Shown piece by piece: positions 7,015-50,304 of a DNA stretch of 64,000 bases (the stretch's first letter is position 1; the number at the start of each line of letters is the position of its first letter). A program made the position numbers and the translations under genes. The notes under the pieces are model-generated. The model had not been told where the DNA came from, made no database searches, and saw only the letters and a program-made list of their open reading frames with translations. The stretch spans positions 247 to 64,246 of the forward strand of contig CAYFHS010000015.1 in the NCBI GenBank assembly GCA_964342815.1, read 5' to 3'. This DNA is from an uncultured archaeon. Lineage in GTDB: Archaea; Thermoplasmatota; Penumbrarchaeia; JASLWR01.

Positions 7015-7124
7015 GCCGAGGTAGCTCAGCCAGGTAAGGCGCGGGCCTGGAGATGACCAGAATCCGTCTCACTTGAGAGCCCGTGGTGCTTGTCACCTCG
7101 AGGGTTCGAATCCCTCCCTCGGCG
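7015..7124 (+). tRNA. tRNA-Ser (anticodon GGA at 7049-7051) with a 25-nt intron (7053-7077) at canonical position 37/38
   Basis: Acceptor stem GCCGAGG (7015-7021) pairs with CCTCGGC (7117-7123), and the discriminator is G7124. The D arm has GG in its loop. Anticodon stem CGGGC (7042-7046) pairs with GCCCG (7079-7083). A long variable arm GGTG-CTTGT-CACC (7085-7097) marks a class II tRNA. T arm is GAGGG-TTCGAAT-CCCTC (7100-7116). A T-run follows at 7128-7133. The bulge-helix-bulge has two AGA bulges (7051-7053 and 7076-7078) flanking a 4-bp helix with one U-U mismatch. CCA is not encoded. Confidence 0.9.
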
Positions 7125-8483: not shown

Positions 8484-9077
8484 TTATTCATTTTTTTTGC
8501 GACCACGCTTTTCCCGAATCTCAAGAATGAATGACCATACCATTAATCCTAGGAAACAAAGACCAGCGAAACCAATACCGAGAAATGTCGCAAATCCTAC
8601 TTTTTCCTTGTAATTCTCCACGGTAACGATCATTTCACCGTAGGATTTATGCCCCTGGCGGTCAGTTACAGTGAGATTTACTTTGTAATATCCGATCTCT
8701 TTAAAAATGAATTCAGGTCTTGGTCCGTAAAGGTGGATCTCCTCTCCTGAATAATCGAAGGTCCAAGAGTAGTTCACGATCTCGTTTTTGTTGCTTGAAC
8801 CCGATGAATTGAACTGCATAGGTTCGTTTATTTGTACTGTTAGGTCCTTTCCTGCATCAGCTACGATAGAAATATTCGTCCCTGAACCATTATCCATGAC
8901 GGGTGCCTCTGATCTTGATCGAAAAACAAACCATGAAGCCTTATTTTCAGCTAGGTTTTCTGGTAAAGGTGACCCTGATGGCTCACCAGACTTGACAAGT
9001 GGTGACTTGTCAAGAAAGGCAATGACCAATATTATCAGAGCCATTACCCAGAAATGAATAAAAAAATTATTTCGCAA
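8484..9077 (-). CDS. Bitopic membrane protein with one PKD domain
   Basis: N-terminal TM segment FFIHFWVMALIILVIAFL. PKD-like core NYSWTFDYSGEEIHLYGPRPEFIFKEIGYYKVNLTVTDRQGHKSYGEMIVTV. C-terminal TM segment plus a basic tail REKRGRKKNE. Confidence 0.6.
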   Translation of the reverse strand: MRNNFFIHFWVMALIILVIAFLDKSPLVKSGEPSGSPLPENLAENKASWFVFRSRSEAPVMDNGSGTNISIVADAGKDLTVQINEPMQFNSSGSSNKNEIVNYSWTFDYSGEEIHLYGPRPEFIFKEIGYYKVNLTVTDRQGHKSYGEMIVTVENYKEKVGFATFLGIGFAGLCFLGLMVWSFILEIREKRGRKKNE

Positions 9078-9080
9078 CTT

Positions 9081-9656
9081 TCATCCCCCTCCCTTCATAC
9101 ACATCTCGAGATAGGATTCCCTAATCCATTCTTTCTCCGCAAGTCCCGTGATAAGAGATTTCATTTCATCCACAGTTTCGTCCACGAGCTTAAATTCACT
9201 TATTACTTTCTCGATTTCCATGAAATTCCCCAAACCTTCTACACGGTCAAGACAGATTACGAATCCCTCGTATGAAATCTCTCTACGGGTCTTTATTACC
9301 TTTCCACTCTCACGAAAACCCAGCGAACGAAAGAGTTCCATCAAAGAATCCCCTTGATTCATATCCAAATCGATATTGATCTCACGCCTTGTTTTTGAAT
9401 CGAGGTGTATCTTAGGTCCCTTGTATGTTAGGAGAAGGCGGCCCAAGTCTCTATCAATCAATTCACCTGTAGGTCGAATTTTTCTCAGGCGCAGTGCCTC
9501 GTCCGTCTCCCTGAAATCATCAGCGGGTGAATTGAAATAATGGTCTTCTTCAATAGTCTCTTCCAGTAATACAGCACCACGATCATAGAGAAAAGATAAT
9601 ATTTTGGAGATTTCAGAACCATCAAGCTTCGTCTTGATCTCTACTTCGAGATTCAT
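9081..9656 (-). CDS. CYTH-domain protein (class IV adenylyl cyclase / triphosphatase family)
   Basis: MNLEVEIKTKL carries the ExExK signature at the N-terminus. I moved the start to the ATG at 9656; the track ORF begins 21 codons upstream at 9719. 4 nt separate it from the downstream PKD gene. Confidence 0.75.
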   Translation of the reverse strand: MNLEVEIKTKLDGSEISKILSFLYDRGAVLLEETIEEDHYFNSPADDFRETDEALRLRKIRPTGELIDRDLGRLLLTYKGPKIHLDSKTRREINIDLDMNQGDSLMELFRSLGFRESGKVIKTRREISYEGFVICLDRVEGLGNFMEIEKVISEFKLVDETVDEMKSLITGLAEKEWIRESYLEMCMKGGG

Positions 9657-9802
9657 GAATTGGATAATAACGTTGTTCAATATGTTTTTTCCCCAGAGAT
9701 AATTCCATAATGATAACATCTAATGCTTTTAAAATTGATGTAAAATAATTAATAGCGACTATACATTATCATAAACAACGGGTAATTACGAAAAGGGAAA
9801 CA

Positions 9803-11203
9803 ATGCTATCCATATCCTATGAAGAAATGACGATGCATCTATATCAATGGGCAGTTGGAGGGAAGATGCATCCCTTGGTCTGTGAGGTCCACCTATCGGA
9901 ACAATCCCAAAGTGAAGGTTTTTTCTCACTATTAAAAAACCGGAGAGAGGAAAACGGTAGCCCAATATTCCTGACAGAGGAAGAGTTAAGGGATATTATT
10001 ATACAAATGAGAGATATTGGTGTCCGTGATTTCCGGTTCGTGGTAGATGTTACAAATCATTATAATAAAGAATTATTGTTCAGTCTATTAGCCAATGTTA
10101 AAGGCAAAGGAGTAGCAAAATCCATTATTTCCAACGGTATGGAACTATCCGGAAATGATATTAAAAATATGTTGGACGCCAATGTGAACCTATTCGAATT
10201 CTCAATTGCCGGACCTGACGAAAATACACATTATGCGAATCGAGAAAAAAATGGCTCTTGGGAAAACAATACAACCGCACTTCACATAATAAAAAAGTTT
10301 ATTGAAAATCAACCCGGATACTCTCCGAGGATCTGCGTAAATGTATTATTGACAAAGGCCAACTGGAACAAACTTTCCAATACCATACGGTTCGCGCATA
10401 GGTCTGGAGCCGACAGCTTCCAGATCCGTCTTCCGAATCCTTCCATTGAGATGAATAAAGAGTTGAACATCTCATCCAGCCAAGCACGCGATCTTCTACT
10501 GATAAAGGATGACCTTGTGAACCTATGCAATATTTATCATATGGATCATAATTTAGACACTTTCCTTCAAGATCGAGTGCTTTTTCCCGTACGGTTGGTA
10601 AAAGAGAAAAAAAAGGATAGCGAAAAAGACCTTACACCCGGATTACCCGACTTTCTCGTGAGATACAAGAAAAGGTTTCCGAAGATGGAGGACTCATTTC
10701 TCCGTTTTGCAACTCTTAGTGATTACGAACCGTGGTATTTCATGGAAGTGAGGGGCGAGGGCATATTAGTTCCAAGAGGAAATAAATATGTCGCCCAAGG
10801 TAACTCCAAGCACTCGATAGAGGAAATATGGTTCGGTAACGAATATAACCAGTGGAGAAGCAGGGCGTTAGCAGTGGGGATGGATCGAACCGCCGTAAAG
10901 CATTCCTTGGTTGGTCCCGGCGGAGTTAAGACAATCCAGAGAGGATTGTTAAAACGATGGAAAGAGGCTTATCTTGCTCAACCCCAGACATCCGCGGGTC
11001 GGGGAAATCTCTTGACCGAATACAGAAATAAAGAAGCAAAGGTCAAGTTGAAGATGCTTGATCGCGACATCCTACTGCTTGAGAAAAATATCAAAGATAT
11101 CAAAAGGCGAATGGATCTCTATTCCAAGGACAAAGAACGTATCATAAAACTCCGCCAGTCACTTTTATTTCGATGGTACCAATCCATCAGACGAATGTTG
11201 TAG
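9803..11203 (+). CDS. Radical-SAM/SPASM-fold homolog lacking all cluster cysteines, with a C-terminal coiled coil
   Basis: KSIISNGMELSGNDIKNMLDANVNLFEFSIAGPDENTHYANREKNGSWENNTTALHIIKKF...ICVNVLLTKANWNKLSNTIRFAHRSGADSFQI follows the TNG...SlDG...RG..g.f...N pattern of the radical-SAM TIM barrel. IEEIWFGNEYNQWRSRAL resembles the SPASM-region motif. Where CxxxCxxC is expected the sequence reads LVCEVHLSEQSQSEGFF. There is no GGE motif and no SPASM cysteines. Confidence 0.5.
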   Translation: MLSISYEEMTMHLYQWAVGGKMHPLVCEVHLSEQSQSEGFFSLLKNRREENGSPIFLTEEELRDIIIQMRDIGVRDFRFVVDVTNHYNKELLFSLLANVKGKGVAKSIISNGMELSGNDIKNMLDANVNLFEFSIAGPDENTHYANREKNGSWENNTTALHIIKKFIENQPGYSPRICVNVLLTKANWNKLSNTIRFAHRSGADSFQIRLPNPSIEMNKELNISSSQARDLLLIKDDLVNLCNIYHMDHNLDTFLQDRVLFPVRLVKEKKKDSEKDLTPGLPDFLVRYKKRFPKMEDSFLRFATLSDYEPWYFMEVRGEGILVPRGNKYVAQGNSKHSIEEIWFGNEYNQWRSRALAVGMDRTAVKHSLVGPGGVKTIQRGLLKRWKEAYLAQPQTSAGRGNLLTEYRNKEAKVKLKMLDRDILLLEKNIKDIKRRMDLYSKDKERIIKLRQSLLFRWYQSIRRML

Positions 11204-11223
11204 AATATTGTCAATGGTGGAAA

Positions 11224-11660
11224 GCTCGACAAAAAGTCGAGGCCTTTCGAGTAACGGTTTGCCGAGGTCCGAGCAATTTCCCCCGGAAATTGACGGATGA
11301 GCGGGGCATTTCAATGCCCTGCACCTGCCAAAGCCTTGGCAGGAGTAACGCCTCGACAAATACAGGCGTATCTCAGATACGCCAGGACCCGAAAGGGATA
11401 GATGTGTCCCGGACACATCGAGGTTTACAGCTTGGCAATGTTTGCGGAATCGGGGCCTGTAGGTTTCCGAAGGAAATCGAAGGCTCAGGTGCATTTAATG
11501 CACCGGAATCTGACCGGACACTTGCGGGCACCTGTAGGAACCTGAAGGGTTCTGAAGGTGCAGTTGCATCTCGATGCAACGGAGTAAAACGGGCAGGTCA
11601 GATGTGCCGTCAGGTACATCGAGATGTAATGGGAGCCCGTAGGGCCGATTCCGCTGAATC
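11224..11660 (+). ncRNA. Candidate large structured RNA, class unknown
   Basis: There is no credible CDS; the two overlapping ORFs are Arg/Cys/Gly-rich with no protein-like pattern. My hand count for 11221-11640 is 226 G+C of 420 (54%), against 23 of 60 (38%) in the coding line 11041-11100. At least 11 perfect or near-perfect local hairpins and two long-range helices are present (coordinates are in the finding). Every non-Watson-Crick position in the proposed helices is G-U on the plus strand, which would be A-C on the minus strand, so I call the plus strand. Confidence 0.5.
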
Positions 11661-11680
11661 ATAAATTAAGGGTTGATTCT

Positions 11681-12409
11681 GTGGATATGGATGAGCTGCA
11701 AAGAAGGATACGGGCCGTGAATCGGAAATATCAAAGGCCGTATATATTCATAAACTCTGCATCATCTCTGGATGGGAAGATCGCTCTCAGAGACGGGAAA
11801 CAATTGAAAATATCCACTATCGAAGATCTCAGGAGGGTGCATAGACTTCGTAACGAGATGGACGCTATTCTAGTAGGTATCAACACAGTAATTTTGGACG
11901 ATCCCCGTCTCCAGGTAAAAGCGGAATTCTTTTCCGGCTCTATCAATAATCCGGTACGTATTGTGGTGGATTCAAGAGGAAGAATCCCCCCTACGAGCAG
12001 AATTTTATCGGGAACAACTGATACGATAATCGCCGTATTAAAGGGAAATGAAAGAAATTTGGGCCGACTGTATGACAGAGAACAAGGTATTATTGTAATC
12101 AAGGGAGTAGAGGCTAACGAAGAAGGGAAGGTGGATCTTCCCACTCTATTTCGAGAGCTTTTTTCAGAGAATATCAACTCGATCCTCGTAGAAGGCGGTT
12201 CAACTATAATATCATCGCTTCTCAGAAGGGATTATTTCGACACATACAGTATATTTTTCCGGAATTTAGTCGTAGGTGGAAGACAAGCACCGACTTTGGT
12301 GGGAGGTCACAGTGCGGTGGTCCCTGAAGACCTGATCCGTTTTGACGATCCCGAAATCGTAATCATGGATGGTGGAATGCTTTTAACCTATCATTCTCAA
12401 ATAATTTAG
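11681..12409 (+). CDS. RibD C-terminal-domain reductase (2,5-diamino-6-ribosylamino-pyrimidinone 5'-phosphate reductase type, riboflavin pathway)
   Basis: RPYIFINSASSLDGKIAL...LRRVHRLRNEMDAILVGINTVILDDPRL...NPVRIVVDSRGRIP...ILVEGGSTIISSLL matches the RibD_C / archaeal pyrimidine reductase pattern. The start is GTG at 11681 or ATG at 11687. Confidence 0.75.
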   Translation: MDMDELQRRIRAVNRKYQRPYIFINSASSLDGKIALRDGKQLKISTIEDLRRVHRLRNEMDAILVGINTVILDDPRLQVKAEFFSGSINNPVRIVVDSRGRIPPTSRILSGTTDTIIAVLKGNERNLGRLYDREQGIIVIKGVEANEEGKVDLPTLFRELFSENINSILVEGGSTIISSLLRRDYFDTYSIFFRNLVVGGRQAPTLVGGHSAVVPEDLIRFDDPEIVIMDGGMLLTYHSQII

Positions 12410-37554: not shown

Positions 37555-38631
37555 CTAGCAGATCCTCGGTATGGGATCGCCAATTGGAGCTTCCACCATT
37601 CTCTTTCCCCCGATTACGGTTTTCATAACAACCCCCCGTACGCTCCTAGTGGCAGTACCAATGATCATTGCATCCTTTCCCTCGGGTCTCCTTTTTATAG
37701 CCTCCAGAACCTCCTGAGCCAATCCGGGGACTACTCCCATGACCACCTTGCCCTCGTTACCTATCTCAAGAGGGTCAAGGCCAAGCATTTCGCAGGCACT
37801 TTGCACCCCGCTCATTATAGGAACCGCTTCCTCATGGATGAGAATACCCAGCTTGGATTTTTCCGCCATCTCGTTCAGGGTGTTTGCAAGCCCACCTCTC
37901 GTGGGATCTTTCATTCCAACGACACCTCCCACCTTAAGCGAATCCTCTATCAATTTATTAAGGGGAGCCACGTCGCTGATTATCTCCGAGCTGAATTGAT
38001 AACCTTCCCTGAAGGACAGAAGCGCTATGCCGTGATCTCCCATGGTTCCAGTAACAATTATCGAATCTCCTTCCGACAGGTTGGAATCCTGCAACCAGTT
38101 ACCTTTGAAATCCCTGTGCTCCCTCACAGTATCAAAATTGCCGTCAAGCCATTCAGACCTTCGACCGATTCCGCTGGTGTTGATGACCATCTTGTCAATA
38201 GCGCCATTCTCCACCACTTTCGTGTCCCCGGTTATTATCGGTACCTGGGCAAGCTCGCATGTTCGGGCAATACTCTCAACTATCCGTTCTAACTCCGATA
38301 TGGAATAACCGTTCTCAATGACCATCGCAAGTGACAGGGCGAGGGGGTCCGCACCCATAACAGCCACGTCGTTCACGGTACCTGCTACTGACAGGCTGCC
38401 GATATCGCCTCCAGGAAAGAAGAGGGGTTTAACAGTATGTGAATCAGTGGTAAAAACAATCCCGTCAATGACAGCCCCGTCGTCCATTGCCCCCAGCGGA
38501 ACCTCTATCTTCGAGCTTTTCATTTCATCACACAATGGCTCCAGGTGATTGAGGAATCTTGAAGATATCAATTCCTGCATCACACGACCGCCTGCTCCGT
38601 GGGAGAGCATTATTCGTTCGTCATCTACCAT
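37555..38631 (-). CDS. hypE: Hydrogenase maturation protein HypE
   Basis: I(M)LSHGAGG near the N-terminus, a PurM-like fold, and a C-terminal PRIC motif (...GDPIPRIC). Confidence 0.92.
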   Translation of the reverse strand: MVDDERIMLSHGAGGRVMQELISSRFLNHLEPLCDEMKSSKIEVPLGAMDDGAVIDGIVFTTDSHTVKPLFFPGGDIGSLSVAGTVNDVAVMGADPLALSLAMVIENGYSISELERIVESIARTCELAQVPIITGDTKVVENGAIDKMVINTSGIGRRSEWLDGNFDTVREHRDFKGNWLQDSNLSEGDSIIVTGTMGDHGIALLSFREGYQFSSEIISDVAPLNKLIEDSLKVGGVVGMKDPTRGGLANTLNEMAEKSKLGILIHEEAVPIMSGVQSACEMLGLDPLEIGNEGKVVMGVVPGLAQEVLEAIKRRPEGKDAMIIGTATRSVRGVVMKTVIGGKRMVEAPIGDPIPRIC

Positions 38632-38635
38632 GTTT

Positions 38636-39724
38636 TCACCCGTAGCGACCGTATTTCAACATGATGTTGCACGACCCTTCGGAGGTAACCATGCATGGAC
38701 CAACAGGATTCTGCGGTGTACACACCTTTCCGAAAAGCGGGCATTCGTGGGAATGGATCAATCCTCTCAACACCTCCCCGCATCTGCAACCCTTGGGCTC
38801 TGTGAATTCCCTCCCCCTGAGTTCGAGTAGATCATCCTCAAACCTGACCCTTGCATCGTGCATTTCGTATTTCTTTCTGATACGCGAACCGCTAGCAGGT
38901 ATTACTCCGAAACCTCGCCAACTAACATCGCAGACCTCAAAAACCGTTTCCATTAGTTTGATGGCTTTAAGATTCCCATGAGACCTGACAGCTCTTCCAT
39001 AACCGTTTATCAATTTTCCCTCGCCCCTATTCACCTGAAGCGCCAGCTGGTATACTGCCATCATCAGGTCTAGGGGTTCGAAGCCGGTGATGACCTGGGG
39101 AACTCCGTATTCCGTTGAAAGGAACTCATATGGTGTTGAGCCGATAATGGTGGAAACATGTCCTGGTTCGATCAATCCGTCAAGTTTCAACTCACCCATC
39201 TCAACGATACCCTTCAGGGCAGGGGGGACCAATCGATGTGTGCACAATATCGAGAAATTCGAAGGTAAACCCTCTTTTCCGGATAGCACTGCAGCGGTGG
39301 ATGGTGCTGTGGTCTCGAATCCAATGGCCATGAAAACGACCTCGTGTCCGGGATTATCCCGTGCGATCACCACTGCATCGTCGATACTGTAGACCATTCT
39401 TACGTCCGCACCCCGGGATTGCATGTCAAAGAGTGTGAACTTTTCCCCGGGCACCCTCATCATATCGCCGAAGACAGTTATGGTCTTGCCCTTCTGGGCC
39501 AGGAGCATAACCTCCTCGATCTCTTCCGGAGGTGTAACGCAGACGGGACAACCGGGACCCTGACGGATATCCACACCAAGATCCAGGATCAATGAATCGA
39601 TTCCGTACCTGATGAAGGTATCCTGGTGCCCTCCACAAACATGCATAAGAGTTATATCGAGGTCCATTTCCTTCAATTTTGTTACGATCCGGTCGGCAAT
39701 TTCCTTGTCACGATACTTGAACAT
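38636..39724 (-). CDS. hypD: Hydrogenase maturation protein HypD
   Basis: MFKYRDKEIADRI...MHVCGGHQDT...GPGCPVCVTP...FETTAP... are HypD signatures. I moved the start to the ATG at 39724, overlapping the hypA stop by 17 nt. Confidence 0.92.
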   Translation of the reverse strand: MFKYRDKEIADRIVTKLKEMDLDITLMHVCGGHQDTFIRYGIDSLILDLGVDIRQGPGCPVCVTPPEEIEEVMLLAQKGKTITVFGDMMRVPGEKFTLFDMQSRGADVRMVYSIDDAVVIARDNPGHEVVFMAIGFETTAPSTAAVLSGKEGLPSNFSILCTHRLVPPALKGIVEMGELKLDGLIEPGHVSTIIGSTPYEFLSTEYGVPQVITGFEPLDLMMAVYQLALQVNRGEGKLINGYGRAVRSHGNLKAIKLMETVFEVCDVSWRGFGVIPASGSRIRKKYEMHDARVRFEDDLLELRGREFTEPKGCRCGEVLRGLIHSHECPLFGKVCTPQNPVGPCMVTSEGSCNIMLKYGRYG

Positions 39725-40157
39725 CGGGTACCTCCATTGTAATATTACGAATAATACATTCCTTGCCGGTGGTGATATTGGGTACGGCATTGCATACCGG
39801 ACATGAAATTAAGGGAAATATCTGATGAAAATCAGGTGTTTCCGAGTATTTTAGATCACCCTCATACCCGCAAACACATTGGATTGCGGCTTTTTTTTTC
39901 TTGACAATCAATTCTGCATTTTTCAGTATAGAAGAGCTTGCTGACGAGCCACAATTTCGATTAGGGTTCATAAGACTCGGATTTTCAAGCAAGACACCAT
40001 TTTTCAACACGTCAAAGGCGAATCCTAATTGTTCCTCTCCCAAAAATGTTAGTTCGCCTATTTCAAGAAATATTTTTGTTACCTCAGTCGCCCCATTCTT
40101 CTCTGCTTCAGCGATAACTGACCCCAGAATCTGGTTCATAACTGAGAGTTCATGCAC
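39708..40157 (-). CDS. hypA: Hydrogenase nickel-insertion protein HypA (with an internal insertion)
   Basis: MHELSVMNQILGSVIAEAEKNGA carries the MHE Ni-binding N-terminus. The zinc site is QCVCGYEG ... CPVCN; the first pair is CxC rather than the usual CxxC. An insert of about 35 aa (NPSLMNPNRNCGSSASSSILKN...) is present. Confidence 0.8.
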   Translation of the reverse strand: MHELSVMNQILGSVIAEAEKNGATEVTKIFLEIGELTFLGEEQLGFAFDVLKNGVLLENPSLMNPNRNCGSSASSSILKNAELIVKKKKAAIQCVCGYEGDLKYSETPDFHQIFPLISCPVCNAVPNITTGKECIIRNITMEVPDVQVS

Positions 40158-42814: not shown

Positions 42815-44071
42815 ATGAAGATAGGCGTTTATGTCTGTGAATGCGGCATCAATATTGCTGCAACCGTTGACGTGGAAAAGGTTGTCGAATACGTCAAAGA
42901 TATACCAAAAGTCGCAGTTACAAGATATTACAAATATATGTGCTCGGACCCCGGCCAGACCCTTATAAAGAAAGATATTGAGGAGCTTGGCCTTGACCGT
43001 GTTGTTGTTGCATCTTGCTCTCCAAGGATGCATGAGCTCACCTTCAGGACCGTTTGCAAGGAAGCGGGTCTGAATCCATTCTGTTTCGAGATGGCAAATA
43101 TACGTGAGCAGTGTTCCTGGGTTCACAAGGACAAAGAGAGAGGTACTGAAAAGGCGATTTCACTGGTAATGTCTGCAGTGGCACGGGCCGCCCTACTGGA
43201 GCCTTTGCAGATGAAAAAAGTTGGAGTAGTACCGAATGCAATGGTCATTGGCGCAGGTATCGCAGGAATACAGGCGGCATTGGACATAGCTGATACCGGA
43301 TACAAGACCTACCTCGTGGAGCGGACCGCAAGCGTTGGCGGCAGGATGTCTCAACTGGATAAAACATTCCCCACGCTGGACTGTTCAGCATGTATATTGA
43401 CCCCGAAGATGGTGGATGTTGCGAGGCACCCGAATATAGAGTTGTTAACTTATTCCGAAGTGGAGAACATTGACGGTTACGTGGGTAATTTCAAGGTCCG
43501 GGTGAGAAAGAGAGCCCGCTCAGTAGACGAGTCTAAATGTACCGGTTGCGGAGTTTGTACGGAGAACTGCCCCATATCGCTCCAAATCCAATTACAGGAT
43601 AAACCCGATGAAGCTCCAGTTGTGAGAGATCGGGAATATATTGAGGAACTGATTGAGAAGAACTCCTATCACGAGGGACCACTTGTACAGATCATGTTGG
43701 AAGTAAACGATAAATACCGATATCTACCTAGAGATGTTCTTGAATATCTATCGTATAAACTTGAGATACCCATGACCACGATTTATCGTGTGGCAACTTT
43801 CTACAAGTCCTTCAGTCTGGAAAAAAGAGGGAAATTTCACATAAAGATATGTCTGGGTACTGCGTGTCATGTAAGAGGGGCGAGGAACATACTCGATAGG
43901 GTAAAGAGTTCCATATCCGGTGCTGAGGAAGGTTTGTTTTCCATCGAGACAGTCAACTGTCTTGGTGCTTGTGCTCTGGGTCCAATTATGGTGATAAATG
44001 ATGAGGTTCACGGTAACGTGACAGTAGATAATGTAGATAAAATAATTTCTAACCTGGGGGTGAATGAATGA
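42815..44071 (+). CDS. Fusion protein: N-terminal half of an HdrA paralog plus a NuoE/HoxE-type thioredoxin-like [2Fe-2S] domain
   Basis: Residues 1 to about 250 are roughly two-thirds identical by eye to the N-terminal half of the upstream hdrA (IGVYVCECGINIA..., MVIGAGIAGIQAAL, CSACILTPKM, CTGCGVCTENCP). The protein then switches to LPRDVLEYLSYKLEIPMTTIYRVATFYKSF...ICLGTACHVRGA...VNCLGACALGPIMVIN, the NuoE pattern. ATG 42815 directly follows the hdrA stop. Confidence 0.8.
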   Translation: MKIGVYVCECGINIAATVDVEKVVEYVKDIPKVAVTRYYKYMCSDPGQTLIKKDIEELGLDRVVVASCSPRMHELTFRTVCKEAGLNPFCFEMANIREQCSWVHKDKERGTEKAISLVMSAVARAALLEPLQMKKVGVVPNAMVIGAGIAGIQAALDIADTGYKTYLVERTASVGGRMSQLDKTFPTLDCSACILTPKMVDVARHPNIELLTYSEVENIDGYVGNFKVRVRKRARSVDESKCTGCGVCTENCPISLQIQLQDKPDEAPVVRDREYIEELIEKNSYHEGPLVQIMLEVNDKYRYLPRDVLEYLSYKLEIPMTTIYRVATFYKSFSLEKRGKFHIKICLGTACHVRGARNILDRVKSSISGAEEGLFSIETVNCLGACALGPIMVINDEVHGNVTVDNVDKIISNLGVNE

Positions 44072-45933
44072 ATAAGTTGCAAAACCCCGGAGAATTGGAA
44101 AAGCTGAAAAGGACCATCCAAGATGGTAGAGACCCCAAAAAACCTATAATAACAATATGTGGCGGGACCGGATGCAAAGCCTCCGGATGCGATGATATAA
44201 TTGGCATCTTTAAAAATGAGATCGAGAAACAAAACCTGGGAAATAAGGTGGACATTCGAATTACCGGATGCCATGGATTTTGCGAAAAAGGCCCTCTCGT
44301 TGTCATTCATCCCAAAAAGATATGCTATCCCAGGGTAAAAGGAGAGGATGTTTCGAGAATTATTTCAGAGACGGTAATGAACGATACGGTGATTGATGAA
44401 CTGCTCTATGTCGATCCAATCTCAGGTGAAAAAATAACCTATGAATATGACATACCATTCTACAAAAAGCAGACGAGGACAATTTTCGGAAGTAATGGCC
44501 ATATCGACCCCACCAGTATTGAAGATTATATTGCCATCGGTGGATATTCCGCCCTTTCGAAGACGCTAAGCAATATGACCCCAGGTAGCGTTATCGAGGA
44601 AATAAAGAGTTCAGGGTTGAGAGGAAGGGGAGGTGGAGGATTTTCTACAGGTAGAAAATGGGCGACCGCAGCCAAATTCGATACGGAGAAGAAATACATA
44701 TTATGCAATGCGGACGAGGGAGATCCCGGGGCATACATGGATCGTAGCGTTCTCGAAGGAAACCCCCACAGCGTGATCGAAGGTATGATCATCGGCGCAT
44801 TCGCAGTTGGGTCCAATGACGGTTATATCTATGTCAGAGCCGAATACCCGCTGGCCGTCTCTCATTTCATAAAAGCCCTGGAAACTGCAAGAGAATATGG
44901 GCTCCTGGGCACGAACATATTGGGAAGCGGATTTGATTTTGACATAAGGGTCTATCAGGGTGGTGGCGCCTTCGTTTGCGGAGAATCGTCAGCTCTCATT
45001 CAATCCATCGAAGGAAAGGTGGGCGAACCCAGAGCAAAGCACATCCACGCTACGGAAAAAGGCCTATGGGGATACCCAACCGTATTGAACAACGTCGAAA
45101 CCTGGGCCAACGTTCCACTGATAATCAACAAGGGTGCCGATTGGTATGCTGGTATAGGTACCGATGGGAGTAAAGGAACGAAAATATTTTCTCTCGTCGG
45201 GAAGATAAACAATACCGGTCTGGTGGAAGTCCCCATGGGTATTACCATAAGGGAAATAGTATATGATATCGGCGGGGGAATACCCGAAGGAAAAAAATTC
45301 AAAGCAATTCAAACCGGCGGCCCCTCCGGTGGATGCATTCCCGAATCACTGATCGACATGGCAATCGATTTCGACGAATTAACAAAAGCCGGCTCCATGA
45401 TGGGATCCGGGGGAATGATCGTGATGGATGAAGGGACCTGTATGGTTGATGTCGCCAAATATTTTATCGAATTCAACCTCGATGAGTCCTGCGGCAAATG
45501 CGTGTCTTGCAGGGAAGGCAATGCACGGATATTGGAAATACTTGAAGACATCTGTCAAGGCAATGGCAATGAAAATTCGATACCCATGCTGGAGGAATTT
45601 GCAGATCATGTGAAGGACCTCTCGCTGTGTGGGCTTGGAAAGACTGCTCCAAATCCGGTTCTTACGACACTGCGGTATTTCAAAGACGAATATCTTGCCC
45701 ATATCGAGAAAAAAGAGTGCCCCGCGAAGACCTGCAAGCCACTGATACGCTATGTCATAGACCCGGATGCATGCAAAGGCTGCAGAGCCTGTGCGCGAAA
45801 ATGTCCGGTTGAGGCGATTACCGGTGAAAAGAAAGAACCACATGTTATCGATGGAAATATTTGTACAAAATGCGGCACGTGTATCGAGACATGTAAATTC
45901 AATTCTATAATAATTGAAACGGGGGGGGTATAA
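44068..45933 (+). CDS. NuoF/HydB-type NAD(H)- and FMN-binding iron-sulfur flavoprotein
   Basis: N-terminal thioredoxin-like [2Fe-2S] domain (ITICGGTGCKASGC...ITGCHGFCEKGPLV). SGLRGRGGGGFSTGRKW is the FMN motif. NADEGDPGAYMDR is the NADH site. ESCGKCVSCREG is an N3-type cluster. The C-terminus has 2x[4Fe-4S] (CKGCRACARKCP, CTKCGTCIETC). It overlaps the upstream stop (ATGA). Confidence 0.88.
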   Translation: MNKLQNPGELEKLKRTIQDGRDPKKPIITICGGTGCKASGCDDIIGIFKNEIEKQNLGNKVDIRITGCHGFCEKGPLVVIHPKKICYPRVKGEDVSRIISETVMNDTVIDELLYVDPISGEKITYEYDIPFYKKQTRTIFGSNGHIDPTSIEDYIAIGGYSALSKTLSNMTPGSVIEEIKSSGLRGRGGGGFSTGRKWATAAKFDTEKKYILCNADEGDPGAYMDRSVLEGNPHSVIEGMIIGAFAVGSNDGYIYVRAEYPLAVSHFIKALETAREYGLLGTNILGSGFDFDIRVYQGGGAFVCGESSALIQSIEGKVGEPRAKHIHATEKGLWGYPTVLNNVETWANVPLIINKGADWYAGIGTDGSKGTKIFSLVGKINNTGLVEVPMGITIREIVYDIGGGIPEGKKFKAIQTGGPSGGCIPESLIDMAIDFDELTKAGSMMGSGGMIVMDEGTCMVDVAKYFIEFNLDESCGKCVSCREGNARILEILEDICQGNGNENSIPMLEEFADHVKDLSLCGLGKTAPNPVLTTLRYFKDEYLAHIEKKECPAKTCKPLIRYVIDPDACKGCRACARKCPVEAITGEKKEPHVIDGNICTKCGTCIETCKFNSIIIETGGV

Positions 45934-45934
45934 A

Positions 45935-47707
45935 ATGGTCATGATCGAGATCAACGGGACGAAGTTCGACGCCCCGAAAGGCAAAATGGTTCTCGAAGTT
46001 GCGAAGGAAAATAAAATCGACATTCCAACGCTTTGTTATCATAAAGCTCTTCCACCCTACGGGGCCTGTCAGCTCTGCGTTGTGGAGATTCTGAAGAACG
46101 GATGGTCCAAACTTGCAACATCCTGTACCCTACCGGTGATGGAGGGTTTGAAGGTTGAGACCGATTCCGAGCGTGTTATAAAAAGAAGAAAAATGAATAT
46201 AGAACTTATGCTGGGTCGCTGCCCGGAAGAAGAAGTTCTCCTGAAACTGGCCCAGGAGTATAATGTTGGAAAACCAAGATTCAAGGAAATGGATGACGAT
46301 TGCATCCTATGCGGATTGTGTGTCAGAATGTGCGAGCGGATGGGTATGGAGGCAATTAGCTTTACCGGTCGTGGCAAGGACCGTGATCTGGGAACGCCTT
46401 TCAAGGAAAAATCAGACGTCTGCATGACCTGCGGTGCCTGTTTATACGTCTGCCCCACATCGAGATTTTCAAGTGAGGAAGTCGAAAGTATTAGTGGAAA
46501 CAAACCACTGCCGATTCCTGCGGAATTCAACGCAGGAATGGAACCCCGCCCAGTAATAAGTATTCCTTTTCCCCAGGCGGTACCAAAAATACCTGTTATA
46601 GACAGGGAACGGTGTGTCCATTTTCAGACGGGTAATTGTAAGACATGCGAAACTTTTTGCGAACCGGGAGCCATCGATTACGAGCAGGAAGATGAGATAT
46701 TGGATCTTGATATAGGTTCTATTATCGTCGCTACGGGTTTCGATCTCTTCGATCCATCGATAAAACCTCAGTATGGCTATGGGAAATTCTCGAATGTGCT
46801 CACCGGCCTGGAATTCGAGCGGCTGGTTTCGGCGTCCGGTCCGACTGAAGGCCACGTTGAACTCAATGGTAAAGAACCCAAAAGGGTGGTGTTCATACAG
46901 TGCGTAGGTTCGAGAGACAAGGAGGGCCATGAATACTGTTCACGTGTTTGTTGCATGTACACTGCTAAACACGCTCATCTCGTGGGAGACAAGGTACCCG
47001 GTGCGGAGATAACAATTTTTTATACCGATGTAAGGGCTTTTGGGAAGGGATTCGAAGAGTTCTATGTCAGGGTACAGGAGGAAGGCGTGGATTACAGGAG
47101 AAGAGAATTGGACGATTTTATCGAGGTTGTCCAGAAGGATGATAGTGATAGTTTAGTTGTTAGGGCGGAGGGTCATCCGGATATCGAAGCTGATCTGGTT
47201 GTGTTGGCCACGGCCATCGAGCCGAGAAAGGATGCCGGCAAGATGATGAATATTCTGAACATCACCCAGAGCGGCGACGGTTTCATGCTGGAGGCTCACC
47301 CGAAACTACGACCTGTGGATACCTTCACAGACGGTGTTTTCCTGGCAGGATGCTGCCAGGCACCGCGGGATATACCGGATACGGTGGCACAGGCGAGTGG
47401 GGCCGCCGCAATGGCATGCAGTATTCTTTCGAAGGATAATCTCGAGATCGATCCTCTGACGTCTTATGTGGACGAGGCATTATGTCGGGGCTGCGGTTTC
47501 TGTGTCGAGGTCTGCCCGTACGATGCCCTTTCGCTGGAAGAAGTGAACCGGTTCGGACATCTGGTTGATGTGGCAAAGGTCAACGAGGCGCTTTGCAAGG
47601 GTTGCGGTTCATGTGTAGGCACCTGCTTGTCGGGTGCGATACAGGTTAGAGGATATAATGATAAACAGATACATGCCGCCATCAGCGCACTGGGGGTGAC
47701 CAAATGA
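45935..47707 (+). CDS. Fusion protein: NuoG-N-terminal-type [2Fe-2S]/[4Fe-4S] domain plus the C-terminal half of an HdrA paralog
   Basis: N-terminus MVMIEINGTKFDAPKG...IPTLCYHKALPPYGACQLCVVEI, CILCGLCVRMCE and CMTCGACLYVCP. From ISIPFPQAVPKIPVID onward it is collinear with the second half of hdrA (IVATGFDLFDP, GLEFERLVSASGPT, FIQCVGSRD..YCSRVCCMYTAKH, FLAGCCQAPRDIPDTVAQASGAA, C-terminal CRGCGFCVEVCP/CKGCGSCVGTC). The start is the ATG at 45935 after a G-run; the track ORF starts at TTG 45914. Confidence 0.8.
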   Translation: MVMIEINGTKFDAPKGKMVLEVAKENKIDIPTLCYHKALPPYGACQLCVVEILKNGWSKLATSCTLPVMEGLKVETDSERVIKRRKMNIELMLGRCPEEEVLLKLAQEYNVGKPRFKEMDDDCILCGLCVRMCERMGMEAISFTGRGKDRDLGTPFKEKSDVCMTCGACLYVCPTSRFSSEEVESISGNKPLPIPAEFNAGMEPRPVISIPFPQAVPKIPVIDRERCVHFQTGNCKTCETFCEPGAIDYEQEDEILDLDIGSIIVATGFDLFDPSIKPQYGYGKFSNVLTGLEFERLVSASGPTEGHVELNGKEPKRVVFIQCVGSRDKEGHEYCSRVCCMYTAKHAHLVGDKVPGAEITIFYTDVRAFGKGFEEFYVRVQEEGVDYRRRELDDFIEVVQKDDSDSLVVRAEGHPDIEADLVVLATAIEPRKDAGKMMNILNITQSGDGFMLEAHPKLRPVDTFTDGVFLAGCCQAPRDIPDTVAQASGAAAMACSILSKDNLEIDPLTSYVDEALCRGCGFCVEVCPYDALSLEEVNRFGHLVDVAKVNEALCKGCGSCVGTCLSGAIQVRGYNDKQIHAAISALGVTK

Positions 47708-47724
47708 GCGAGGAAGTACAAGCT

Positions 47725-47765
47725 GAGTTCGAACCAGACATCGTTGCCTTTCTATGTAATTGGTG
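47725..47765 (+). repeat. Direct repeat copy 1 (41 nt, 37/41 identical to 47901-47941)
   Basis: gagttcgaaccagacatcgttgcctttctatgtaattggtg versus gagttcgaaccaaatatcgtagcctttctatgtaactggtg. The offset is 176 nt. Confidence 0.9.
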
Positions 47766-47768
47766 GAG

Positions 47769-47820
47769 TTTTTTTCTTTGTGCAATTTTCTGTGCTGGCT
47801 CCCCCTCGCAAAGAAAAAAA
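47769..47820. repeat. 12-bp perfect inverted repeat within the inserted segment
   Basis: TTTTTTTCTTTG (47769-47780) and CAAAGAAAAAAA (47809-47820), separated by 28 nt. Confidence 0.85.
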
Positions 47821-47894
47821 TTCGGAAATGAAGAAACTCGAGGGAGCCTGCTCGAAAATTGTTACTCACTTCGTTCGCAGAAGGAGGTGGTTAT

Positions 47895-48320
47895 TTGAGT
47901 GAGTTCGAACCAAATATCGTAGCCTTTCTATGTAACTGGTGCTCGTATGCAGGAGCCGATCTTGCAGGTACATCGAGAGCCCAATACCCACCGAACGTTA
48001 AGGTCATACGTGTGATGTGTTCGAGCCGCATCAATCCGTTATTCCTGATAAACACACTTCAGCAAGGGGCTGACGGTGTACTGATCGGCGGCTGCCACCC
48101 TGGTGATTGTCATTATGTCCAGGGCAATTACTTCGCCAGGAGGAAGTTCGGCCTCATAAAGAGTCTTATGGAGCAAGTCGGCGTCGATCCGGCAAGAGTG
48201 AAAATGGCCTGGGTATCCGCCTCGGAGGGATCAAAGTTTGCTGAATTGATCCAGGAGCTTTCGGACGAATTGCGGGAGATTGGTCCCATGGAACAGTTCA
48301 AAAGGAGGGATGAGCTGTGA
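47895..48320 (+). CDS. mvhD: MvhD-type iron-sulfur protein (methyl-viologen-reducing hydrogenase delta subunit family)
   Basis: (M)SEFEPNIVAFLCNWCSYAGADLAGTSRAQYPPNVKVIRVMCSSRINPLFL...GADGVLIGGCHPGDCHY. The likely start is TTG at 47895, 7 nt after AAGGAGGTG. The track ORF starts at 47859. Confidence 0.85.
   Translation: MSEFEPNIVAFLCNWCSYAGADLAGTSRAQYPPNVKVIRVMCSSRINPLFLINTLQQGADGVLIGGCHPGDCHYVQGNYFARRKFGLIKSLMEQVGVDPARVKMAWVSASEGSKFAELIQELSDELREIGPMEQFKRRDEL
47901..47941 (+). repeat. Direct repeat copy 2 (functional mvhD 5' end)
   Basis: See copy 1. This copy continues in frame into the intact MvhD sequence CSYAGADLAGTSR. Confidence 0.9.
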
Positions 48321-49285
48321 TTACGGAAATTCGAGAGGCGGTGAAGGAATATCTGGCCCGTGATGATGTAAAATATGCCATTGGCTACGAAAAGGGAACC
48401 TACGGCTCAAAGGTCGCTCCGTCATTTGCATTTTCTCCGAAGGACGTTGATAAATTCATCTTTTCACCATTGTGCATCAATAACCTGGCCGTCTATCCGC
48501 TCCTAGAAGAAAAATTACCTTTACCAAGGGGACAGACAGCCGAGAAATCAAAGATTGTTGTTGTCCTGAAAGGATGTGACTCAAAGGCCATGCTCCAAAT
48601 AATCAACGAAAAGGGATTGTCCCGTGATGATATCATTATTATCGGAGTGTCCTGCTCCGGAGTCATAGACCCGAAAAAGCTTCAGGCAAAGTTCCCAAAT
48701 TCTCCAATCGACGCTGCCTATAAAGACGGTAAGTTCCTGCTGCTGGTCAATGGGGAAGAACAGCATATTTCAAAAGATGAACTCATCTTTGAGAAGTGCA
48801 AGGTATGTGAAAATCCCAATCCGGTTATCTACGATCTGCTTGTGGGAGAAAAGGTTGAACCAAAGGTCGACGATTTTACCGACGTTACAGCGAGGAAGGA
48901 CGATAAACCGGAGGAAAGATGGAACCACTGGGGACAGGAGTTCGACCGTTGTATCCGATGTTACGCCTGCAGAGGTGTTTGCCCCATGTGCTACTGCAAG
49001 AAGTGTATTGCAGAAGAGTTGAGACCGGCATGGATCGGACGTTCGGTAAATTTGTCAGAAAATACCGCTTGGAACCTGATCAGGGCCTACCACCTTGCAG
49101 GAAGATGCATCGATTGCGGTGAATGCGAGAGGGTTTGTCCCATGGACCTCCCATTACGGGAACTGAACCGAAAGATGGCAAAAGATGTTTTTGAGTTATT
49201 CGATTACAAGGCCGGAATCAACCTGGACGGGAAACCGGTTTTAGCTGTCTACAAACCCGATGACCCGGAGGATTTTATATTGTAG
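48317..49285 (+). CDS. 4Fe-4S dicluster protein (Flx/sulfhydrogenase-associated type) with an uncharacterised N-terminal domain
   Basis: CIRCYACRGVCPMCYC and CIDCGECERVCP are cluster motifs. The N-terminal domain includes VVVLKGCDSKAMLQI. The GTG start overlaps the mvhD stop (GTGA). Confidence 0.6.
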   Translation: MITEIREAVKEYLARDDVKYAIGYEKGTYGSKVAPSFAFSPKDVDKFIFSPLCINNLAVYPLLEEKLPLPRGQTAEKSKIVVVLKGCDSKAMLQIINEKGLSRDDIIIIGVSCSGVIDPKKLQAKFPNSPIDAAYKDGKFLLLVNGEEQHISKDELIFEKCKVCENPNPVIYDLLVGEKVEPKVDDFTDVTARKDDKPEERWNHWGQEFDRCIRCYACRGVCPMCYCKKCIAEELRPAWIGRSVNLSENTAWNLIRAYHLAGRCIDCGECERVCPMDLPLRELNRKMAKDVFELFDYKAGINLDGKPVLAVYKPDDPEDFIL

Positions 49286-49293
49286 GTGATAGC

Positions 49294-50304
49294 ATGATAT
49301 TGCCAAAGAACAAACTGAACCATTGGCTGGCCGCCCTGAAGAAACATGATCTGTTCACCCCTACCCGGAACGGTGACGTTGTTCTTTTCAGTCCCTTTTC
49401 CGGAGAAAAAGATGTCATTCTGGAGGGGAGGCCAACCTTGGGCCCCAAGGGTATATTGTTTCCCCAGACCGAAACCCTTTTTACATATCGTATCGGAAAA
49501 AATGCAGAAATTGTGGATGCTGCAGACAAGCGAACGAAGAGGATCATATTCGGCATCCGTCCCTGTGATGCCAGGGCGTTCTCGGTTCTGGATAATCTGT
49601 TCAAGGATGAATACCAGGACACTTATTACCTAAATGCGAGAGAAGCCACGACCCTGGTTGGTCTGACCTGTTCCCAGCCGAATACAAACTGTTTCTGTAC
49701 CTCCCTGTCCGGCAGCCCAGGTGAAAGAGACGACGTAGACATTCTGCTCACCGACCTCGGTGACGGATATTACGTTGATATCGTAACCGAAAAGGGACAA
49801 ATTTTGGTGGACGAGAACTATCAGCTCTTCTCGGAGGTCTCCGACAGTGACGAAAGCAGGAAAGAGGCAATAATAGCGGATGCGGAAAAAAGCATTTCAA
49901 GAATGATCGATTCCACCGACCTGCCCAACAAATTAGGGAAGATTTTCGAGAGTGACTATTGGAATAAGACCGCTATGAAATGTATCGGCTGCGGGACCTG
50001 CACATACCTCTGCCCAACCTGCTATTGTTTCGATATACAGGATGAGATTCAGGGTATAAAGGGTAAGAGAGCGCGAATGTGGGATTCATGCATGTACCCC
50101 GAATATACCATACACACGTCCGGCCACAATCCCAGGCCTGCCAGGATGAATAGAATTCGGAACAGGGTATATCACAAGTTCAAGTACTACCATGATAATT
50201 TTGACGTCCATCTCTGCATAGGATGCGGCAGATGCGTGGACAAATGTCCCGTGAACATAGATATAATCGACATAATAACCCATGTGAAGGAGGGAGCACA
50301 ATGA
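49294..50304 (+). CDS. AsrA / sulfhydrogenase-beta (HydB) / FlxB-C-like iron-sulfur protein
   Basis: CIGCGTCTYLCPTCYCFDIQDE...MWDSCMYPEYT...CIGCGRCVDKCPVNIDI is the characteristic AsrA/HydB-beta pattern. Confidence 0.7.
   Translation: MILPKNKLNHWLAALKKHDLFTPTRNGDVVLFSPFSGEKDVILEGRPTLGPKGILFPQTETLFTYRIGKNAEIVDAADKRTKRIIFGIRPCDARAFSVLDNLFKDEYQDTYYLNAREATTLVGLTCSQPNTNCFCTSLSGSPGERDDVDILLTDLGDGYYVDIVTEKGQILVDENYQLFSEVSDSDESRKEAIIADAEKSISRMIDSTDLPNKLGKIFESDYWNKTAMKCIGCGTCTYLCPTCYCFDIQDEIQGIKGKRARMWDSCMYPEYTIHTSGHNPRPARMNRIRNRVYHKFKYYHDNFDVHLCIGCGRCVDKCPVNIDIIDIITHVKEGAQ

Follow-up and report, generated by a model that had tools for sequence, protein, structure and literature searches.

A hairpin-dense intergenic segment of a Thermoplasmatota genome as a probable copy of a gene-less mobile repeat

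Structured interspersed repeats are known in bacteria from the REP/REPIN, BOX, ERIC and Correia families. BOX elements are modular, insertions occur at fixed internal points of ERIC copies, and the REP/REPIN–RAYT systems combine 20–40-nt palindromes and a conserved 5′ GTAG-like tetranucleotide with a flanking RAYT gene. Here, we compare with these and other systems a 455-nt hairpin-dense segment (positions 11205–11659) from a 64,000-nt stretch of DNA (hereinafter the window; contig CAYFHS010000015.1) of an uncultured Thermoplasmatota archaeon. The most similar described elements are the palindrome-associated transposable elements (PATEs) of haloarchaea, which derive from IS200/IS605-type (IS1341/tnpB) transposons (PMC3119063). 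We conclude that the segment is very probably a young and intact copy, larger than usual, of a non-autonomous mobile DNA element. Its family is a set of previously undescribed, gene-less mobile repeats in some marine Thermoplasmatota genomes; as a kind, such structured PATE/REPIN-like interspersed mobile repeats are already known. No account of such repeats in Thermoplasmatota turned up in full-text literature searches.

Filled and empty sites and the repeat family

The segment separates a radical-SAM-like gene from a RibD_C reductase gene. With the same gene order, this gap measures only 25–47 nt in L004, L006, L045 and L046 (such handles denote individual loci), the closest relatives being ~76% identical in RibD and 72–76% identical in the radical-SAM-like protein. 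Alignment places the extra DNA between TTGTAGAAT and a ribosome-binding-like AAGGG(T/A)TGAT, and the empty sites read TTGTAGAAT directly followed by TCTTAA in L004 and by CTCAAA in L006. In L001, another assembly of the same species, the insert is present with one substitution (G at 11587). Segment 11205–11659 is an insertion, and three filled/empty pairs, namely those at the radical-SAM/RibD, Mut7-C/DnaJ and UQ_con/DUF5679 gaps, display precise insertion beside a pre-existing AT. Thus, copies are polymorphic for presence and absence at orthologous sites, with precise boundaries; the target AT, and at the window site the entire GAAT, pre-exist in the empty sites. The old copies that L004, L045 and L046 share at an orthologous site are diverged and no longer pair in the left-hand helix H1 (described below), while the corresponding site is empty in the window and in L071. 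The first-pass annotation had delimited the structured region as 11224–11680; the natural boundaries are 11205 or 11207 on the left and 11659 on the right.

When GTDB (one genome per species) was scanned with a 20-nt left-end pattern, ATATTGTCAATGGTNNAAAG, Thermoplasmatota archaeon ETNP2_MAG_1 (JASLWR01) yielded 15 loci, and the archaeal metagenome-assembled genome (MAG) SRP077602_co2_347 (CAYRFL01) yielded 13 sites distributed over 12 loci. The other matches in this collection lie in non-archaeal, mostly bacterial, records, and we take them to be due to chance (four were re-scanned with a covariance model built on the minimal form of the element, and none matched). The same model confirmed none of the ten matches to this pattern in viral contigs. 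It did recover further copies lacking the exact word, in L046 and L004 (Mut7-C/DnaJ), in L071 (UQ_con/DUF5679) and as second copies in L116 and L118. The copy in the window, the only one in its 64 kb, is confirmed by both pattern and covariance-model matches.

Full copies range from 92 to 494 nt and are all intergenic. They show no orientation bias, with 11 on the same strand as the upstream neighbor and 12 on the opposite one, and 15 versus 9 with respect to the downstream neighbor. The genomes thus carry multiple dispersed copies with shared ends and unrelated flanks, as is typical of mobile elements. Dispersed, intergenic, unbiased in orientation and with its old copies decayed, the element behaves as a selfish mobile repeat. 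Searches beyond these genomes were negative: blastn of the element against phages and plasmids gave no match, and the 38 matches to the pattern CCTGTAGG..GAAGG..CCTGTAGG in viral contigs, mostly collagen-like coding repeats, had no real similarity to the element. Likewise, none of the 18 matches to CCTGTAGG..GAAGG..GGAGTANAAC in a metagenome collection that lacks the relatives' contigs was homologous to it; most of these (about 11) represent a single conserved coding sequence in homologous copies, and the others look fortuitous.

The two-hairpin chassis and its nested modules

The minimal element, 92–95 nt long, consists of two hairpins, H1 and P1, which we refer to as the chassis. H1 comprises ATATTGTCAA...TTGACAATGT around an inner hairpin, GCTCGAC-AAAAA-GTCGAG, while P1 has the form GCGGAATCG-small hairpin-CGATTCCGC and has TGAAT or TTCAT after it. 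Across 24 copies, pairing in the chassis amounts to 93.5%, with both-side changes in 13 of its 36 pairs, values reached by none of 500 shuffles; in slid controls, pairing is 29–44%. The features of the window copy and its flanks are as follows:

11205–11659, + strand: whole element, 455 nt by the family pattern (11207–11659 if the first AT is host DNA)
11201–11206, + strand: left flank; TAG stop of the radical-SAM-like gene (11201–11203), then AAT, with the target AT at 11205–11206
11205–11214, + strand: 5′ strand of H1, ATATTGTCAA, pairing with 11432–11441; conserved in all copies, with H1 95% paired over 24 copies
11224–11241, + strand: inner hairpin of H1, GCTCGAC-AAAAA-GTCGAG; candidate left subterminal palindrome, its foot ~17–18 nt from the left end
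11242–11431, + strand: nested expansion of H1; self-folding hairpin modules wholly absent from minimal copies
11249 and 11343, + strand: the two occurrences of the repeat GAGTAACG
11432–11441, + strand: 3′ strand of H1, TTGGCAATGT, pairing with 11205–11214; family-wide U·G wobble in 21 of 24 copies
11440–11443, + strand: linker GTTT, 5′ of the P1 foot; pairs with the 3′-terminal GAAT in a 'guide'-like manner
11444–11453, + strand: 5′ strand of P1, GCGGAATCGG, pairing with 11645–11654; double changes in 8 of 13 P1 pairs
11454–11485, + strand: first GUA/GA module; architecture as in 11 other instances, with an identical 36-nt stretch in L119
11488–11504, + strand: hairpin B, GGTGCAT-TTA-ATGCACC; medium-sized copies have another sequence at the equivalent position with the pairing kept
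11528–11561, + strand: second GUA/GA module; its L006 homologue has compensatory stem changes and the same loop
11563–11580, + strand: hairpin D, GTTGCAT-CTCG-ATGCAAC; in the same place L006 has a hairpin of unrelated sequence, GCAAAGCC-TCA-GGGTTTGC
11580–11593, + strand: mostly unpaired strand CGGAGTAAAACGGG (family consensus CGGAGTGNAACGGG); conserved in L006 and medium copies, and unpaired in the RNAalifold consensus
11636–11644, + strand: small terminal hairpin in P1, CCC-GTA-GGG; CCCGRAGGG or CCCAAAGGG in minimal copies
11645–11654, + strand: 3′ strand of P1, CCGATTCCGC
11655–11659, + strand: 3′-terminal pentanucleotide TGAAT (subfamily 1), which fits the target consensus WGNAT
11660–11683, + strand: right flank; ribosome-binding-like AAGGGTTGAT retained (11668–11677), GTG start of the RibD_C gene at 11681
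Junctions: empty site, TAGAAT followed by CATAAATT; expected right end–left end (RE–LE) circle junction, CCGCTGAAT followed by ATTGTCAATGG
11173–11664, + strand: accidental 163-codon open reading frame (ORF) crossing the whole element; 116 aa of it annotated by gene callers in L001

The inner hairpin of H1 is found in the minimal copies with CG↔UA and CG↔AU double changes; in the minimum free energy (MFE) fold of the window copy, 11236–11243 pairs with 11350–11357 instead. Larger copies consist of the chassis plus extra self-folding hairpins at three places: 3′ of the inner hairpin of H1, in the stretch joining H1 to P1, and within P1. The five-fold spread in length among copies arises from hairpin modules nested inside both chassis hairpins. 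In the window copy, GAGTAACG brackets a window-specific insert of ~86 nt (11257–11342) within a hairpin that other copies keep uninterrupted as CCTTTCGAG-TAACGC-CTCGAAAGG. In blastn comparisons with the other copies, the modules at 11357–11431 proved common to L079, L088, L109, L141 and L087, and element positions 68–152 (window 11272–11356) had no match. The window copy is therefore a mosaic, its ends and several modules being 75–100% identical to copies in both of the above MAGs.

The first-pass annotation had pointed to an internal duplication of a hairpin with a GUA/GA loop. This is a real recurring module, present in 12 instances in 10 sequences with varied stems; its loop is GTA/GA in ten of these, GTA/TA in one and GGA/GA in another. 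A kink-turn reading of the module was rejected on inspection, as the 3-nt bulge is followed by GG or by part of a Watson–Crick stem and not by tandem G·A. The commonest content of P1 is a four-way junction made up of the GUA/GA hairpin, UCAG, a variable hairpin, an unpaired CGGAGUGNAAC and a small CCCGNAGGG hairpin, with 14 of 34 pairs covarying in the RNAalifold consensus. Homologues elsewhere keep their pairing through base changes, bearing out the compensatory evolution proposed for the window modules. For example, L006 carries the 3′ half of a homologous element upstream of its radical-SAM-like gene, in which the stems GGAACCT/GGGTTCT and GTTGCAT/ATGCAAC of the window are replaced by GGAAACC/GGTTTCC and GCAAAGCC/GGGTTTGC, respectively, with pairing, GTA/GA and CGGAGTA.AAC all kept. 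The conserved four-way junction and this compensatory evolution of modules leave room for a role at the level of RNA or of folded single-stranded DNA (ssDNA).

The individual sequence features reported in the first pass, i.e., seven local hairpins, two long-range helices, both modules and the words CCCGTAGGG and GAGTAACG, were exact in all 14 cases. Its observation of G+C enrichment also holds, as 11224–11680 has 53.2%, the whole window 45.3% and the two flanking genes 41.5% and 43.2%. The fold is extreme: the + strand reaches −217.2 kcal/mol as against −154.1 ± 6.7 for dinucleotide shuffles (z = −9.37; 0 of 100 as good), and the − strand, with an MFE of −179.8 kcal/mol, is weaker, placing the structure far beyond chance. 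Of 25 copies across the family, 22 have the more stable fold on the + strand, and the MFE folds contain 99 G·U pairs on that strand as against 55 on the other. This points to selection on one of the strands, although the chassis itself shows no such asymmetry (see below). The failure to match a known RNA class was likewise reproduced. Rfam, run on the whole window at gathering score and on the element, two relatives' regions and two medium copies at E ≤ 10, returned nothing but noise for the element (best score at most 20.5 bits versus family thresholds of 36–91). Likenesses to RNase P, signal recognition particle RNA and 5S rRNA (GGAAAG...ACAGCUUGGC, CAGGUCAG/UGUAAU and GGAGUG..GAGCC) were dropped, having no Rfam support in large or medium copies.

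Ends, mobilization and rival explanations

The 5′ flanks of 36 copies share the consensus W-G-N-A-T on a flat background. Position −5 is T in 20, A in 12 and C in 4 copies and never G, position −4 is G in 21 of 36 (58%), −3 is degenerate, and AT is invariant (36/36). At the other end, the terminal pentanucleotide of 26 copies is TGAAT in 9, TTCAT in 13 and something else in 4 (TAAAT, TTCAA, TTTAT and TACAT). The fit of the TGAAT end to WGNAT explains the junction GCTGAAT followed by ATTGTC in L066, where two units stand in tandem (...GATTCCGCTGAAT directly followed by ATTGTCAATGG...) and a right end of the window-copy type abuts a left end. Over its first 38 nt, the second unit matches the window copy at ~95% identity, with flanking proteins only ~44–50% identical. 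The AT on both sides of copies is compatible with a 2-bp duplication, with insertion between the A and the T, or with an element that itself ends in AT having inserted 3′ of AT. Terminal inverted repeats are absent, the 5′ ATTGTCAATGG being unrelated to the reverse complement of the 3′ CGATTCCGCTGA (3′ end CGATTCCGCTGAAT), which sets the ends apart from those of classical miniature inverted-repeat transposable elements. The 3′ terminus instead covaries with the linker preceding P1: the pair at positions −2 and +3 is T-A in 10 copies, G-C in 11 and G·T in 1, and that at −1 and +2 is C-G in 7, T·G in 2, T-A in 1 and A-T in 1. RNAalifold extends P1 through these pairs, and both termini of the element thus come to lie where the two chassis helices join.

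These properties can be set against those of the PATEs. Like them (PMC3119063), the family comprises elements too short for a transposase that lack terminal inverted repeats, bear palindromes near both termini (H1 with its inner hairpin on the left, P1 with its small hairpin on the right) and show no clear target duplication. Again as in PATEs (PMC3119063), a short conserved targeting oligonucleotide lies 5′ of the element (the 4–5-nt W-G-N-A-T outside the left end), and copies are heterogeneous, include nested or targeted insertions and are many per archaeal genome. In contrast to PATEs, the palindromes are mutually unlike, length varies by modules inside the chassis hairpins and not by a core between the ends, the host is a thermoplasmatotan, and no IS605-type transposon (i.e., a tnpA/tnpB element) with matching ends was found in the window or in the 8-kb loci around copies. 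The parallels with IS608 and other IS200/IS605 members (PMC3201880) are the asymmetric ends, each with a subterminal hairpin; a left cleavage or target motif outside the element, ~17–18 nt upstream of the foot of the inner hairpin (19 nt in IS608); right terminal nucleotides that pair with 4 nt 5′ of the right hairpin foot in the manner of guide/cleavage-site pairing; insertion 3′ of a short motif with no gain or loss at the available resolution; and an RE–LE junction seen as a tandem. The family departs from IS608 in that its right end lies 1–5 nt from the hairpin foot (10 in IS608) and the pairing there simply prolongs the helix in antiparallel fashion. On the left, no guide/target pairing is evident and an extra outer helix, H1, closes the end; the two hairpins also differ from each other, and no TnpA was identified. 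With REP/REPIN, BOX, ERIC and Correia, the family shares short, intergenic, multi-copy, stable hairpins, often co-transcribed with neighbors. It differs from them in sequence, ends and target, in its archaeal host and in nested growth to ~500 nt with a conserved GUA/GA module. As for the REP/REPIN–RAYT systems in particular, the sequence and architecture are other, and no RAYT-type Y1 gene was seen near the copies.

IS200/IS605 elements offer the best fit on account of the asymmetric ends with subterminal hairpins, the target motif outside the element, the right-end guide pairing, the lack of inverted repeats and the RE–LE abutment, and it is these features that make the family most like the haloarchaeal PATEs. 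Accordingly, we tentatively posit, as a possibility only somewhat short of even, that the family is an archaeal analogue of PATEs mobilized in trans by an IS200/IS605-type mechanism acting on ssDNA. A single-strand-DNA transposase (HUH/Y1, 'peel and paste') would recognize the subterminal hairpins, and the cleavage sites would be found by base pairing with adjacent 'guide' nucleotides. We do not file the family as PATEs, given the dissimilar hairpins, the lack of evident left guide pairing, the possible AT duplication and the failure to find an autonomous partner. An IS110/bridge-RNA-like model was also considered and rejected, since the flanks have no extended target sequence in common.

Several observations weigh against our reading of the segment as a non-autonomous element so mobilized. 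Pfam found no transposase among the ten window ORFs of 322–418 aa that were scanned (of ~30 of at least 180 aa), an all-against-all ORF comparison over 27 MAG loci found no multi-copy protein near the copies, and no long copy carries an ORF of its own. AAAG, the 4 nt located 5′ of the left inner hairpin, has no convincing pairing to WGNAT; the right cleavage site would be only 1–5 nt from its hairpin foot; and the two subterminal hairpins do not resemble each other (GCTCGAC-AAAAA-GTCGAG versus GCGGAATCG...CGATTCCGC or CCCGRAGGG) as those of IS608 do. In IS200/IS605-type systems, the left and right hairpins are alike and a single TnpA dimer binds both. The chassis G·U (17) and A·C (15) combinations are about equal when one conserved U·G is excluded, giving no strand asymmetry, and a 2-bp AT target duplication by another enzyme (DDE or recombinase) fits the junctions equally well. 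Finally, the internal modules keep their pairing, the GUA/GA loop and the unpaired GGAGUGNAAC, which a transposon needing only its ends would not require.

Some of these points speak for a rival explanation, namely a classical cut-and-paste or recombinase-dependent miniature element that duplicates a 2-bp AT target and is served in trans by a DDE enzyme or site-specific recombinase, the hairpins being incidental or double-stranded protein-binding sites. It would account for the AT on both sides of every copy, the precise insertion in the three filled/empty pairs and a chassis without excess of G·U over A·C once the conserved U·G is removed. We nevertheless consider it unlikely, as there are no terminal inverted repeats (ATTGTCAATGG versus CGATTCCGCTGA), the target preference W-G-N-A-T is wider than AT, and the covariation of the 3′-terminal nucleotides with the internal linker implies a folded single strand. 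A further alternative combines mobile DNA with an RNA gene: the 3′ domain (the P1 four-way junction) could be a transposon-borne functional RNA, omega- or guide-like, with the 3′ flank as guide and an RNA-guided nuclease or recombinase as partner. TnpB guide RNAs lie at the extreme right end of their elements, and this domain is similarly placed; it also has 14 of 34 covarying pairs plus conserved unpaired nucleotides, and WGNAT resembles a short transposon-associated motif (TAM). That no TnpB/IscB-like gene occurs near any copy or in the window (by the ORF comparison and the ten scanned window ORFs), that the domain shrinks to a 35-nt hairpin in minimal copies and that it matches no Rfam family make this improbable in our estimation. 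Doubtful to a similar degree is the broader conjecture that the right-hand four-way junction, with P1, the loop-E-like GUA/GA hairpin and the unpaired GGAGUGNAAC, is either a transposon-encoded functional RNA or a folded ssDNA, 'ribozyme-like' synaptic scaffold that works with an archaeal nuclease or recombinase, the element growing by templated insertion of hairpins into its own loops. If true, it would represent a novel type of archaeal mobile element, one guided by structure.

The first-pass annotation had proposed a large structured RNA of unknown class. What stands of this is that the segment is non-coding, strongly structured on the + strand and subject to compensatory change in its homologues elsewhere; its standing as a unique, stand-alone RNA gene does not. 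A stand-alone structured RNA with a cellular function and several paralogous copies would be in line with the very stable, strand-specific fold, covariation in both the chassis and the internal modules, the conserved GUA/GA loop and unpaired GGAGUGNAAC strand, G+C above the genome average, the absence of + strand T-runs longer than 3 and a TATA-like TTTAAATA ~27 nt upstream of one minus-oriented copy (L045). However, the site is empty in close relatives, dozens of copies of 92–494 nt have the same ends with a five-fold difference in content, the flanks are variable without a conserved promoter or orientation bias, old orthologous copies have decayed, and minimal copies are reduced to two hairpins, all of which renders such a gene very improbable. 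We discount almost completely a protein-coding gene as well as a riboswitch or leader that regulates the riboflavin-pathway reductase gene downstream, even though the element directly precedes the RibD_C gene and an uninterrupted ORF spans 11173–11664. Four close relatives have the same gene pair without the segment, other copies flank unrelated genes, and there is no match to a flavin mononucleotide (FMN) or other riboswitch, which disposes of the gene-specific leader or 3′ untranslated region entertained in the first pass; an FMN riboswitch or rib leader was likewise rejected on comparison with the relatives. The earlier judgement that the region has no believable coding sequence stands, with the correction that a 163-codon ORF spanning it had been overlooked. 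We regard this ORF as an accident, since other long copies do not keep the frame open: long copies (at least 146 nt) other than that of the window have stops in all frames except for one frame of a 161-nt copy, a test that is uninformative for the 92–111-nt copies owing to their small length. Further, the concatenated six-frame translation of the element had no match among 5.8 billion proteins.

The reading as a non-autonomous mobile element removes a false lead, in that a GC-rich, covarying 455-nt segment resembling a new large RNA of the ribozyme class is a mobile repeat. In scans for novel RNAs in archaeal MAGs, copy number and empty sites are thus worth checking first. The chassis, the target motif and the covariance model can be used to annotate these repeats. 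Should single-strand transposition be true, the covariation between end and linker would provide a natural test set for guide-based choice of cleavage sites in archaea.

Gene context and related loci

The order of genes at the locus is radical-SAM-like (9803–11203), RibD_C reductase (11681–12409), Mut7-C, DnaJ and urocanase. The element begins 2 nt past the stop of the first and ends 21 nt ahead of the start of the second, in the same orientation as both. Its right flank aligns with the relatives as AAGGGATGAT/AAAGGATGAT, then GTGGA(T/C)ATGGATGAG. The window copy has no + strand T-run longer than 3 and is probably carried in a bicistronic transcript, in which it would form a compact, closed and T-run-free structure, with the ribosome-binding site of the second gene kept intact. 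The radical-SAM-like protein has just 10 homologues among the 5.8 billion proteins, a borderline Pfam score (31 bits versus a cutoff of 29.5) and no evident CxxxCxxC motif in its N-terminal part. Its gene is always found within the block CYTH / radical-SAM-like / RibD_C / Mut7-C / DnaJ / urocanase.

Among the other copies, that of L045 is in the opposite orientation, with the 230-nt left domain of the window copy reduced to one hairpin. L066, an 8.7-kb contig of a relative, has four left-end motifs (64, 2527, 2760 and 8686, + strand), two of them head-to-tail. In L088 (6763–6900) and L097 (963–1100), an alternative right-hand hairpin, GTTTCGACCGTAGGGAGAAA(T/G)GTT, replaces P1, which suggests a second type of right end in the family. 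L065 has a 975-nt hairpin-dense gap (9026–10000) between the CYTH and radical-SAM-like genes, with near-identical hairpin pairs (e.g., GTTAAGACGG...CCGTCTTAAC twice), GA-loop hairpins and a 3′ end resembling the right end of the element; this gap, which has no Rfam match, may be a compound or related repeat.

The repeats, or single-nucleotide polymorphisms in them (A/G at window 11587), fragment assemblies. Three independent assemblies of the L006-type organism break at the same base inside the element, and independent assemblies end at identical positions inside copies in L071/L072/L073 (position 1) and in L002/L003 (position 1). Spurious gene calls are a further consequence, and these seed protein databases: a public 116-aa 'protein' at L001 2598–2948 (equivalent to window 11314–11664) lies wholly inside the repeat.

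Elsewhere in the window, Rfam detects a tRNA at 7015–7124 (+ strand; 42.6 bits) that is interrupted by 28 nt after its anticodon stem and by another 14 nt ahead of the T arm. ARAGORN found no tRNA in the whole window; we take the feature for a probable archaeal tRNA with an intron. Hydrogenase-maturation genes (HypE-like AIR synthase-related and HypD) adjoin a cluster of iron–sulfur/flavin oxidoreductase subunits (37558–39790, − strand; 42815–51224, + strand), a region that is ordinary chromosomal context.

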